Source of the DNA: an uncultured Alistipes sp.
GTDB taxonomy: Bacteria; Bacteroidota; Bacteroidia; Bacteroidales; Rikenellaceae
Reading direction: 5' to 3'
Length of the DNA: 64,000 nt
NCBI GenBank assembly: GCA_944320625.1
Contig: CALUIG010000002.1
Location: forward strand, 3,803 to 67,802
Shown: positions 23,048 through 33,793 of the stretch, one piece after another
How the letters are laid out: each line of letters opens with the position of its first letter
How positions within the stretch are numbered: the stretch's first letter is position 1
Notes under the pieces: model-generated
What the model saw: the letters and a program-made list of their open reading frames with translations, nothing else
Told to the model about the DNA's origin: nothing
Databases searched by the model: none
Position numbers and translations under genes: made by a program

Positions 23048-23087
23048 AAAAAAACAGACCGCCACGACATCGCATGTCATGGCGGTC
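23048..23087 (-). terminator. Intrinsic terminator (attenuator) in the pur operon leader
   Basis: Minus strand GACCGCCATGACAT-gcg-ATGTCGTGGCGGTC-TG-T7, located between the promoter and purE. Confidence 0.85.
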
Positions 23088-23093
23088 CGGTAT

Positions 23094-23237
23094 CTATCCG
23101 AGAAGTCCGCAAGCCGACTGTCGTCGCACCAAGGAGCCGGTGCCACGCATCGACTGATACGCCGAAGAATAGAAGGCAGCGGCCTGGACCTGTTGCTGCT
23201 TCCGCTCGCGCCGGTCGATCGTGCAGAGTGAGTTCAT
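23094..23237 (-). CDS. Putative pur operon leader peptide (47 aa)
   Basis: Manual translation MNSLCTIDRRERKQQQVQAAAFYSSAYQSMRGTGSLVRRQSACGLLG*; starts 30 nt after the -7 element and stops 6 nt before the terminator stem. Confidence 0.55.
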   Translation of the reverse strand: MNSLCTIDRRERKQQQVQAAAFYSSAYQSMRGTGSLVRRQSACGLLG

Positions 23238-23267
23238 CGGGATAACCTAACTGTTAAAACATCGTTA

Positions 23268-23298
23268 CAAAAGTAGCGCTTTTCGCCCTACTTTCAAA
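23268..23298 (-). promoter_or_regulatory. pur operon sigma-A promoter
   Basis: TTTG (23295-23298)-N19-TACTTTTG (23268-23275) on the minus strand. Confidence 0.8.
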
Positions 23299-23434
23299 AT
23301 TCCGGGACAGATTATATCGACATTTTATCGACAATCGCCCCGGAACACACGAAACACCCCGGAAACCGCAATGGCCCCGGGGTGAAATCCTTCTCTTCGG
23401 GACGGGCATCCGTCTCCCCTCCCGTCCATCGCCG

Positions 23435-24520
23435 CTATCGAGCCTTCGCCTCGCAGTAGGCACAGCGGCACGTCCCGTCGGGCATCCGGCGGAACAACCG
23501 GTCCACATCCTCCGTCGCCGAAATGCAGCGACGATTCGGACACTCCATCTCGTTGACGATATACTCCTCGCCGAAAACCGGCGTATGGGCAAACGGACGG
23601 TTTTCGTCAGCCCACCGCAGCAGCGTCAGAATCAAAGCCATACGCACGAACTTGCCGTTCTCCACCTGCCGGAAGTAGGCCGCACGAGGATCGTTGTCCA
23701 CCGCCCGCGTGATCTCGTTCACCCGCGGCAGCGGATGCAGGATCGTCATGTCCGCCTTCGCCGTACGCAGCTTCTCGGGATTCAGCACGAAACTGTTCTT
23801 CACCCGGTCGAACTCCTCCTCATCCAGGAAGCGCTCCTTCTGCACGCGCGTCATGTAGAGGATGTCCAGTTCGGGCATCACCTCCTCCATCGTGCGCACC
23901 TCCCGGAACGAAAGTTTCGAATTGGCCTGCATCTCCTGCAGCATGTAGTCCGGCAGACGCAGCTCCTCGGGCGAAATCAGAATCACCTCGATCCCCTCGT
24001 AGCGCGACAACGCCTTGATGAGCGAGTGCACCGTGCGGCCGAACTTCAAATCCCCGCAGAAACCGATCGTCATGTGGTCGAAACGCCCCTTCTCGCGCTT
24101 GATCGTCAAAAGGTCGGTCAGCGTCTGCGTCGGGTGCGAGTGGCTGCCGTCCCCAGCGTTGATCACCGGAACCCCGGCGTACTGCGACGCCACGAGCGGA
24201 GCTCCCTCCTTGAAGTGGCGCATGGCGATGATGTCCGCAAAACAGCGGATCACCCGAACCGTGTCGGCCACCGTCTCGCCCTTCGACACCGACGACGAAT
24301 TGGCGTCCGAAAAGCCGATCACCTGCCCACCCAGTTCGAGCATCGCCGACGTGAAGCTCAACCGCGTGCGCGTCGACGGCTCGTAGAAAAGCGTCGCCAG
24401 CTTCTTGCCCTTGCACGCCTCGCTGTACTTGGCCCGGTTGGCAATGATGTCTTCGGCCAGGGCCACGATCTGCTCGGTCTCCTGTACCGTCAGATCCGTC
24501 GGGTCTATCAGATGTCGCAT
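23435..24520 (-). CDS. pyrB: Aspartate carbamoyltransferase catalytic chain with fused C-terminal PyrI-like zinc domain
   Basis: Start MRHLIDP behind [30 protein letters not shown]; tail CPNRRCIS...CRCAYCE. Confidence 0.95.
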
Positions 24521-24543
24521 CGTATCCTCCTTTTTTATCTTTT

Positions 24544-31215: not shown

Positions 31216-32299
31216 GTCTGTACTCCTCCATGATTTTAGTGAACTTATTGAACAGATAGGCGCTGTCCTGAGGACCCGAAGCGCTCTCCGGATGGTATTG
31301 CATCGAGAAGACACCCTCTGCGGCGCACTCCACCCCTTCGGCCGTGCCGTCCAGCAGGTTCACGTGCGTAAGCGTCAGACCCGTGCCCTTCAGCGAGTCA
31401 ATATCCACGGCATAGCTGTGATTCTGACTCGTGATCTCCAGTTTTCCCGTCACCAGGTTCTTCACCGGATGGTTCGCTCCACGGTGTCCGAACTTCATCT
31501 TGAAGGTCTTCGCACCGTAGGCCAGGGAAATCAACTGGTGGCCCATGCAGATTCCGAAAATCGGAAGACGGCCCCGCAGCTGCTTTACCAGTTCAATCAC
31601 CGGCGTCACGTCCGCCGGGTTGCCGGGGCCGTTCGACAGCACGATCCCGTCCGGACGGAAGGCCAGAATCTCCTCCACCGTCGAATTGTACGGCATCACG
31701 ATCACGTTGCATCCCACCCGGTTCAGCAGCCGCACGATGTTGTACTTGATACCGCAGTCGATTGCAACCACGTCGTACTTGTGGTTCGCCACACGCGACA
31801 TCCAGCGTTTCCGGCAGCTCACACGCGCAACCATGTCGTGCGGCATTTCATAGGCATTCAAACGGGCCAGAGCCTCCTCGCGCGGTGTCGCGGCATCGGT
31901 GATGATCACTTTCTGGCAACCCTCGTCGCGGATGATGCGTGTCAGGGCCCGGGTATCCACGCCCGAGATGGCCGGAATGTCGTACTCCTCGAAGACCTCG
32001 TTGAGCGTCTTCGTGTAACGGAAGTTCGACGGGAGGTCGTTGTACTCCCGGACGATCATTCCGCCGATGGTCGGCGTCTTGGTCTCGTAATCCTCGTCCG
32101 CCATCCCGTAGTTGCCGATCAGCGGGTAGGTCATCACCACCATCTGATCCGTGTACGACGGATCGGACATGATCTCCTGATACCCCACCATCGAGGTATT
32201 GAAGACGATCTCGTTGATGGCCTCGCGGTCGGATCCGAACCCGTATCCGTAGAACTCGCGGCCGTTCTCCAAGACAATTTTTTTCGTAAAAGCTTTCAT
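31208..32299 (-). CDS. carA: Carbamoyl-phosphate synthase small subunit
   Basis: [39 protein letters not shown]. Confidence 0.97.
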
Positions 32300-32311
32300 C
32301 CTTGTCTCCTC

Positions 32312-33598
32312 TTATCTGATTGTTTTCGTTGTCAGCGTATCGTAAACCGCGCGCCCGCCCACCACCGTGAGCACCGCACGCCCCTCGACCTCCCACCCGG
32401 CAAACGGCGTGGCGCGGCCTTTCGAAAGAAACTCCTCCGGATCGATTTTCCAACGCGCCCCGAGGTCCAGCACCGTGAAATCGGCCTCCTCACCCGCCTC
32501 GATTCCCCCTTCGAGGCCGAAGAGCCGACGCGGCGACGTCGACATCAGGTCGATCAGCCGCTCCAGCGGGATGATGCCGGATTTCACCAGCCCGGTATAA
32601 AGCAGCGGGAAGGCCGTCTCGATCCCCACGATGCCCATGGCACTCCCGGCCAGACCGCGCGACTTCTCCTCAGCCGTATGCGGGGCGTGGTCCGTAGCCA
32701 CGACCTCGATCGTGCCGTCGGCCACTCCGGCGATCAGCGCCTCGCGGTCGGCACGGCTCCGCAGCGGCGGGTTCATCTTGAAACGCCCCTCCTCCTGCAG
32801 ATCCTCGTCGCACAGCAGCAGGTAGTGCGGAGCCGTTTCGCAGCTCACGCGAAGCCCCCGCGCCTTCGCCTCGCGGACCAGTTCGACGCTCTCCTTCGTG
32901 GAGACGTGGCAGACGTGGTACTGGCAGCCGGTCCGAGCGGCCAGTTCGATGTCGCGTCCGACCTGCCGCCATTCGCTCTCCGACGAGATGCCCCTATGGC
33001 CGTGGGCATGGCAGTAGTCGCCGTCGTGGATATACCCTCCGCGGAGGAGTTCATCGACCTCGCAGTGTGCCACGATCGGCTTGCCGACCGCCGCGGCACG
33101 GCGCATCGCCTCCTCCATGAGTTCGGCCGACTGCACCCCGCGGCCGTCGTCCGAAAAGCCCGCGACATGGGGAGCCAGCGCCGCGAAGTCGGCCAGTTCG
33201 CCGCAGCCGCGCTGTCCCACGGTGATCGTGCCGTAGGGTTTCACCCGCACCACGGCATCGCGGCGGATGATCGACAACTGCGCTTCGAGATGTTCGGGAG
33301 AATCGGGAGCCGGATTCACGTTGGGCATCGAGCAGACCGTCGTATAACCGCCGCGAGCGGCCGCGGCCGTACCCGTAGCGATGGTCTCCTTCTGCGGAAA
33401 GCCCGGTTCGCGCAGGTGGACATGCACATCAACCAGTCCCGGGACCAGATACAGACCTCCGAGATCCACCCGCCGGTCTTCGGGCTGCGGTTCGCAATCG
33501 GCAACTACCCGGCCCGCCTCCACGACCAGACAACCCGGTTCGAAGCGGCCCCCGCGATAGATCGCAGCATTTTCGTAAAACGTCTTCATCGGCTCCAT
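32312..33598 (-). CDS. pyrC: Dihydroorotase
   Basis: PGLVDVHVHLREPG, MPN, HCE, CHVST, KMNPPLR, ATDHAPH. Start 33598 or 33589. Confidence 0.95.
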   Translation of the reverse strand: MEPMKTFYENAAIYRGGRFEPGCLVVEAGRVVADCEPQPEDRRVDLGGLYLVPGLVDVHVHLREPGFPQKETIATGTAAAARGGYTTVCSMPNVNPAPDSPEHLEAQLSIIRRDAVVRVKPYGTITVGQRGCGELADFAALAPHVAGFSDDGRGVQSAELMEEAMRRAAAVGKPIVAHCEVDELLRGGYIHDGDYCHAHGHRGISSESEWRQVGRDIELAARTGCQYHVCHVSTKESVELVREAKARGLRVSCETAPHYLLLCDEDLQEEGRFKMNPPLRSRADREALIAGVADGTIEVVATDHAPHTAEEKSRGLAGSAMGIVGIETAFPLLYTGLVKSGIIPLERLIDLMSTSPRRLFGLEGGIEAGEEADFTVLDLGARWKIDPEEFLSKGRATPFAGWEVEGRAVLTVVGGRAVYDTLTTKTIR

Positions 33599-33603
33599 CG
33601 CAT

Positions 33604-33635
33604 AAAAAAATAGGGCAACCGAAACAGTTACCCTA
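33604..33635 (-). terminator. Intrinsic terminator (attenuator) in the pyr operon leader
   Basis: Minus strand TAGGGTAACTG-ttt-CGGTTGCCCTA-T7, directly before pyrC. Confidence 0.85.
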
Positions 33636-33735
33636 ATAAAACAATAATACCGAATCCTGCCGAAGAGTGGGACCCCGACCAATAATCCTGCTGCCAGAAC
33701 TTCTGTGCCGTTGGGATGAGGGGGTTACAATTCAT
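33628..33735 (-). CDS. Putative pyr operon leader peptide (35 aa)
   Basis: Manual translation MNCNPLIPTAQKFWQQDYWSGSHSSAGFGIIVLLG*; the stop codon lies inside the 5' arm of the terminator. Confidence 0.6.
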   Translation of the reverse strand: MNCNPLIPTAQKFWQQDYWSGSHSSAGFGIIVLLG

Positions 33736-33761
33736 AGGATTCGGTCCGCTGTAATTGCTCA

Positions 33762-33793
33762 CAAAGATAGGGGTTTTTCGCCTCCCCTGCAAA
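33762..33793 (-). promoter_or_regulatory. pyr operon sigma-A promoter
   Basis: TTTG (33790-33793)-N20-TATCTTTG (33762-33769) on the minus strand. Confidence 0.8.

Follow-up and report, generated by a model that had tools for sequence, protein, structure and literature searches.

Leader reading frames that stop at intrinsic terminators head the pyrimidine and purine operons of Alistipes and may act as ribosome-gated attenuators

We analyzed a 64,000-nucleotide (nt) stretch of DNA from an uncultured Alistipes sp. (Bacteroidota; Rikenellaceae; GenBank assembly GCA_944320625.1, contig CALUIG010000002.1, forward-strand positions 3,803 to 67,802), hereafter called the window. It holds an operon for pyrimidine synthesis (pyr) and, directly downstream, an operon for purine synthesis (pur). 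Each is headed by its own leader, which consists of a promoter, a short leader reading frame (upstream open reading frame, uORF) and a predicted intrinsic terminator. Judged by sequence, such leaders occur upstream of both operons in most relatives examined. All window features below lie on the minus strand; carB, purL and a small glutaredoxin-like ORF were named by eye from the sequence.

33762-33793, minus: pyr promoter match of the Bacteroidota -33/-7 type, TTTG-(19-20)-TAnnTTTG, with a putative start site
33737-33745, minus: 5' arm of a predicted long-range helix, just upstream of the pyr uORF start codon (from folding; one clade only)
33628-33735, minus: pyr leader uORF, 35 codons (from ORF translation and orthologue geometry)
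33649-33657, minus: 3' arm of the predicted long-range helix, ending at the U-rich tract (from folding)
33636-33649, minus: pyr U-rich tract, 11 U in 14 nt, a predicted pause region sensitive to uridine triphosphate (UTP)
33604-33635, minus: predicted pyr intrinsic terminator, an 11-pair stem (33635-33611) followed by U7
23435-33598, minus: pyr operon, pyrC carA carB pyrK pyrD pyrF (glutaredoxin-like ORF) pyrE pyrB
23268-23298, minus: pur promoter match of the Bacteroidota -33/-7 type
23094-23237, minus: pur leader uORF, 47 codons (from ORF translation and orthologue geometry)
23167-23207, minus: predicted hairpin within the pur uORF (about codons 11-24), a candidate pause hairpin
23048-23089, minus: predicted pur intrinsic terminator, a 16-pair stem (23089-23055) followed by U7
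10137-23019, minus: pur operon, purE purK purL purC purF purM purN purH purD folD

A full match to the TTTG/TAnnTTTG consensus, given for Bacteroidota in the available part of PMC6847099, lies upstream of both uORFs in the window. The pur uORF stops 4 nt upstream of its terminator stem, and the pyr uORF stops within the 5' arm of its own; the isoleucine, valine and two leucines near the end of the pyr peptide are encoded by the U-rich tract. The closest named relatives of pyrK are from Alistipes. An initial annotation, made from the sequence alone, had described both leader ORFs, and their translations, end codons and proximity to terminators are exactly as it stated. It had further proposed that both leaders share an attenuation system in which slow termination or arrest at a leucine-leucine-glycine-stop end (LLG*) takes the place of PurR and PyrR control. 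Neither leader matched an Rfam family at the gathering score, and by E-value there were weak unrelated matches only. A sequence look-up with the window's pur leader likewise returned no similar leader.

Position of the uORF stop codon relative to the terminator

To define the leaders beyond a single genome, we collected the regions upstream of purE and pyrC from genomes of the genus and family. Removal of exact duplicates and of clostridial loci (2 pur and 13 pyr) left 75 pur and 122 pyr regions, of which 73 and 104, respectively, had both a promoter box and a terminator core that could serve as anchors. Terminator motifs were picked from the data, blind to any ORF, and a leader was scored as positive if its first ATG-started ORF of at least 20 codons had its stop within -20 to +12 nt of the terminator core. 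This was the case for 61 of the 73 pur leaders and 96 of the 104 pyr leaders. After thinning at 75% similarity, it held for 52/64 pur and 61/69 pyr leaders, whereas 100 dinucleotide shuffles averaged 9.3 and 8.2 and never exceeded 16. The conserved layout is thus a promoter, a uORF of 26-63 codons and a stop abutting an intrinsic terminator, and the terminator formed in the full-leader fold of every thinned positive leader (52/52 pur, 61/61 pyr). Two related genomes (L093 and L096) have a pur uORF deleted to a possible GTG-started frame of three codons; the stop of this residual frame keeps its position before the stem.

For comparison, we examined ordinary terminators in the window's genome. 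A codon-usage gene caller returned 1688 genes, 299 of which have a terminator within 150 nt downstream, with the stem starting at a median of 28 nt past the stop. Just 11 of these 299 stems begin at -10 to +9 nt from the stop; 24 begin at 10-19 nt, 146 at 20-39 nt and 97 at 40 nt or more, and 21 lie below -10. In Escherichia coli, a ribosome almost fully suppresses a terminator placed a few bases past the stop codon, and full function returns beyond about 27 nt (available part of PMC4824070). The conserved spacing supports, as far as sequence can, the initial proposal that both operons are under ribosome-dependent attenuation.

Such control would call for coupled transcription and translation, which we presume for this genome; the accessible portion of PMC13323073 names six phyla as runaway, none of them Bacteroidota. 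The trp, his, phe, ilv, met and cys leaders of the same genome (contigs C1, C43, C73, C57, C48 and C38) carry runs of matching codons, and hence attenuation operated by the ribosome plausibly works here. The his leaders were confirmed in 10 of the 41 genomes searched. The pur and pyr leaders resemble amino-acid attenuators of the trpL, hisL and pheL types in having a leader ORF and an intrinsic terminator. However, the stop lies 21-55 nt upstream of the stem in the six amino-acid leaders compared, whereas it abuts the stem in the pur and pyr leaders, where a ribosome reaching the stop should prevent, not allow, termination. Neither leader has the run of regulatory codons that marks a classical amino-acid attenuator, and no residue exceeds 12% in either family. 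A CATA motif shared with amino-acid leaders was set aside because it is confounded by the His codons of the his leaders; it showed no covariation with the base preceding the start codon.

PyrR attenuators and the ZMP/ZTP, purine and phosphoribosyl pyrophosphate (PRPP) riboswitches of Bacillota act on the same operons and likewise by termination. The lack of an Rfam match argues against any catalogued riboswitch here, and PyrR scored above the cut-off in none of the 61 genus genomes (36 had weak matches below it). A Bacillus-type PurR was not found in this 87%-complete genome; the E. coli-type (LacI-family) PurR was not searched for. To this extent, the absence of PyrR and PurR control that had been proposed is borne out.

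Candidate signals, mechanism and alternatives

The most consistent compositional feature belongs to the pyr leaders. The 15 nt before the terminator core have a U fraction of at least 0.40 in all 61 thinned leaders (median, 0.60), a level reached by 7% of 210 ordinary terminators, and U content here exceeds that of the leader's own pyrC coding sequence in 61/61 cases. As the control is pyrC of the same genome, the U-richness is not a matter of genome composition. In E. coli pyrBI, a uridine-rich stretch overlaps a short ORF, and UTP can thereby alter the coupling of ribosome and polymerase (available parts of PMC3641672, PMC7818426 and PMC5021804). Together with pyrE, it offers the closest description of what we see, namely a short ORF (pyrL in pyrBI), a U-rich stretch and an intrinsic terminator whose hairpin the ribosome blocks at low UTP (same sources and PMC4824070, likewise in the portions accessible). 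Given the U-rich tract before every stem, we consider it likely, by analogy, that the pyr leader is a UTP-sensing attenuator of this logic.

The likeness is one of description rather than of sequence comparison with pyrL, and it spans two phyla. There are also differences: a single Alistipes leader heads the whole nine-gene pyr operon; its stop lies at or in the 5' arm of the stem, whereas the pyrBI terminator lies within a 135-bp leader gene, according to the text available; and Alistipes has a twin leader on the purine operon.

In the window's clade, a predicted long-range helix pairs bases before the pyr start codon with bases before the U-rich tract, and in the folding model it may serve as a pause or shut-off helix. 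Its z score was below -2 in 14/61 thinned pyr leaders and 5/52 pur leaders. A helix hiding the uORF start was rejected as a feature of both leaders, as it is limited to this one pyr clade. Codon 7 of the pyr uORF is the rare isoleucine codon ATA in 32 of 61 leaders (32 of the 36 with isoleucine there), and ATA makes up 2.4% of isoleucine codons in this genome and 18% in pyrC of the relatives. This codon may affect initiation or reduce the speed of the ribosome; codon 7 of the window's own pyr uORF (33717-33715) is ATC. The trp leader of this genome has ATA at codon 7 as well.

The pur leaders are less clear-cut. Over the last ~60 nt, their purine fraction is 0.585, above that of their own gene in 46/52, and the pyr leaders show the mirror bias (0.413, below their own gene in 57/61). 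A hairpin recurs at ATG+30 to +75 of the pur uORFs (mean z, -1.0; below -1.5 in 40% of 52) and might keep polymerase waiting for a ribosome to load. Arginine occurs at position 12 in 26/52 pur leaders, and a CG is invariant among 29 aligned leaders. Rather than a peptide signal, it may mark the base of the internal hairpin. The uORF of Salmonella mgtCBR, mgtM, resembles the pur leader in that its peptide is not conserved and its coupling has been proposed to sense a purine nucleoside triphosphate; mgtM contains a conserved run of adenines as well as alternative stem-loops, and its genes are on at high ATP (accessible text of PMC3641672). By contrast, we found no conserved A run in the pur leader, which would be expected to be on at low purine.

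We propose that both leaders are ribosome-gated attenuators, a reading to which we assign a probability of roughly 0.6. On each leader, the terminator would form by default, and a race between ribosome and RNA polymerase would decide the outcome: a ribosome translating the uORF close behind polymerase would cover the 5' arm of the stem and block the terminator. At low UTP, polymerase would slow at the U-rich tract of the pyr leader, which would let the ribosome close the gap and transcription continue into the pyrimidine genes. The pur leader would use the same gate, with a hairpin pause early in the uORF followed by release. Its most likely trigger, which we hold at rather less than even odds, is the slowing of polymerase at low ATP or GTP once released from the hairpin pause. 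The peptide sequences, LLG included, would be by-products. Translation of the uORFs, termination, pausing and the signals sensed are all suppositions of this model. A stricter version, in which the leaders are a post-transfer pair of valves free of protein and ligand, with polymerase sensing UTP on one and ATP or GTP on the other, is possible but doubtful. If true, purine and pyrimidine synthesis would be balanced by two mirror-image races between ribosome and polymerase, and pyrBI attenuation would have a counterpart in purine biosynthesis.

Several points weigh against this model. First, 2 pur and 18 pyr regions were dropped for want of an anchor; the remaining leaders are kin, and therefore the counts overstate independence; and a single GC-rich genome supplied the ordinary-terminator controls. 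Second, the near absence of an antiterminator, which favors the model (z score below -2 in 0/52 pur and 4/61 pyr leaders), comes from an insensitive test that only 2 of 6 amino-acid attenuators passed. Third, the purine bias of the pur leaders is weak and indistinct from controls, so we rejected the idea that a purine tract cleanly mirrors the pyr U-rich tract: the purine fraction was 0.67 compared with 0.60 before ordinary terminators, the six amino-acid leaders span 0.49-0.68, the window's pur leader has 0.49, and purine runs do not exceed those of shuffles in length (22/52). Fourth, the ratio of nonsynonymous to synonymous substitution rates is 0.51 in both uORFs (15 and 41 pairs), which still allows weak peptide-level constraint, and insertions and deletions in the uORFs show no bias toward multiples of three. 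Lastly, ten RNA-library runs showed small word shares, and the four examined are contigs of relatives, which are silent on transcript ends and levels.

The alternative that survives best keeps the gate and changes the signal. The pur leader, and perhaps both leaders, would read general translation capacity rather than a nucleotide, such that lagging ribosomes, during amino-acid starvation or slow growth, would let the terminator form and turn nucleotide synthesis off. Geometry alone predicts this outcome, slower ribosomes increased termination at the E. coli pyrL hairpin (available part of PMC5021804), and both the failure to find a specific purine tract and the rare ATA at codon 7 of the pyr uORFs fit it. 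Nevertheless, it leaves unexplained the U-rich tract of all 61 pyr leaders and the opposite biases in base composition of the pur and pyr leaders; no such leader lies upstream of guaB or purA, and pyrG and purB are operon-internal. On balance, we regard it as unlikely.

We consider it improbable that the pur leader is an uncatalogued RNA that binds a ligand or protein, with the ribosome merely relaying the outcome. A purine-pathway signal such as ZTP, PRPP or a nucleotide would then act on the hairpin within the uORF or on the terminator stem. The hairpin is recurrent, the terminator stems are unusually conserved in sequence within clades, and a ZMP/ZTP riboswitch precedes purE in two clostridial relatives (L125 and L133, of seven clostridial loci scanned). 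However, the alignment fold of 29 pur leaders yields the terminator only, at a mean column identity of 49% and with no conserved unpaired pocket seen, and neither an Rfam match nor an antiterminator was found.

Fixed dampers, with read-through held constant by a terminator that the ribosome suppresses in part, are more improbable still. The near-total loss of the pur uORF in L093 and L096 would suit a damper; yet a weaker promoter would serve equally, and both the close spacing of stop and stem and the U-rich tract, which matches its pathway, persist among leaders after thinning at 75% similarity.

The literature searched does not say by what means Bacteroidota regulate de novo nucleotide synthesis when PyrR and the usual riboswitches are lacking, and these leaders offer a concrete answer, 150-230 nt long, for a common gut genus. 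Our search (listings and the starts of abstracts, with most subscription papers outside it) returned no description of such Alistipes leaders or of a pyrBI-type purine attenuator, and the accessible parts of PMC6524683 and PMC7858274 hold nothing on such leaders. Under the ribosome-gated reading, the pyr leader would bring Bacteroidota into the range of pyrBI-type UTP sensing, and the pur leader would be its purine counterpart. The presence of both leaders in one genome amounts to a natural swap experiment.

Peptide ends of the leader uORFs

The initial annotation had asked whether LLG* is conserved among orthologous leaders with synonymous variation, and had named freely varying C-termini as grounds for abandoning a shared arrest or slow-termination motif. 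The C-termini do vary freely. LLG* is found at the end of 5 pur uORFs out of 61 and 22 pyr uORFs out of 96, and the thinned sets contain 43 different C-terminal tripeptides in 52 pur leaders and 37 in 61 pyr leaders. The codons are the same in each of the 22 pyr cases; the five pur cases do vary synonymously (three codon strings), yet they are five of 61. In addition, a genome-wide scan of 35 promoter-terminator pairs returned no uORF-LLG*-terminator leader besides the two studied, and LLG ends 4 of the 1688 called genes. The caution that the resemblance might be due to chance was apt: beyond LLG, the pur and pyr peptides resemble each other no more than expected by chance, and the two window peptides gave no BLASTP alignment at E ≤ 100.

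The same DNA is moreover read in different frames. Among 48 pyr leaders of the clade with the window's stem, the stop is in the glycine frame in 31 and in a second frame in 15, the latter giving ends of the FY*, FF* or VF* type. Of 24 pur leaders, 19 read a single short DNA motif as G* or R*, 4 read it as DR* and 1 reads through it. The uORF continues through the stem in L083, L215, L218 and L150, and all three stop codons are in use. A terminal glycine is enriched (16/52 pur and 19/61 pyr leaders vs 3.3% of ordinary genes), an enrichment that stems from the terminator stem in pyr and from the short DNA motif in pur; in pyr, the two leucines come from the U-rich tract and the glycine and stop from the 5' arm of the terminator. 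A conserved C-terminus and stop with synonymous variation, the features of an arrest-peptide or slow-termination leader of the TnaC type, are absent. Hence, although LLG ends both window peptides and terminal glycine is enriched, we give next to no credence to a shared LLG-stop peptide that stalls or slows the terminating ribosome, and reject it as a shared motif on its frequency, frame switches, codon identity and failure to align.

Origin of the operons and neighboring genes

PyrB of these operons groups with Clostridia, apart from PyrB of other Rikenellaceae and Bacteroidales, with a split support of 100. This was a quick, midpoint-rooted tree with 14 rows for each of four groups (drawn from 103, 22, 27 and 27). 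A topology holding Alistipes PyrB with that of other Rikenellaceae was rejected (p-AU 3.9e-135; 6 rows per group). Both nucleotide operons may have been taken from Clostridia; the clostridial rows were picked for their similarity to the query, and so the direction of this transfer is a supposition that goes beyond the tree. If so, the leaders would represent regulation replaced after horizontal transfer. No uORF-terminator leader was found at 20 native purE loci of other Rikenellaceae, and no promoter-uORF-terminator leader within 420 nt of native pyrB at 30 such loci, whose operon heads were not examined.

Other Bacteroidales families (L229, L230, L233, L235, L237, L239, L240, L243 and L250) have, upstream of their native pyrB, a terminator that lies 7-20 nt past the stop of a long gene. 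Its stem is like that of the larger Alistipes pyr clade, in a layout reminiscent of rph-pyrE, and in some cases a promoter follows. L222 has a promoter and a U-rich uORF that runs through its own terminator.

Among the neighboring genes, PyrB (23435-24520) has 361 residues, of which the aspartate transcarbamoylase model spans 2-301. Its tail has two pairs of cysteines, by eye presumably like those of the PyrI zinc domain, which suggests at the level of sequence that PyrB carries a fused regulatory domain. Between pyrF and pyrE, the glutaredoxin-like ORF (25294-25554; 86 residues) has a CPFC motif and no NCBIfam match at 1e-30, and it is retained in RNA-library contigs of relatives. The window also contains two cobalamin riboswitches, at 42922-43124 and 52464-52659; the latter precedes a 711-residue ATP-cone protein that by eye resembles an anaerobic ribonucleotide reductase. 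CarA (31208-32299) has apparently kept the glutaminase cysteine and histidine motifs, also judged by eye.

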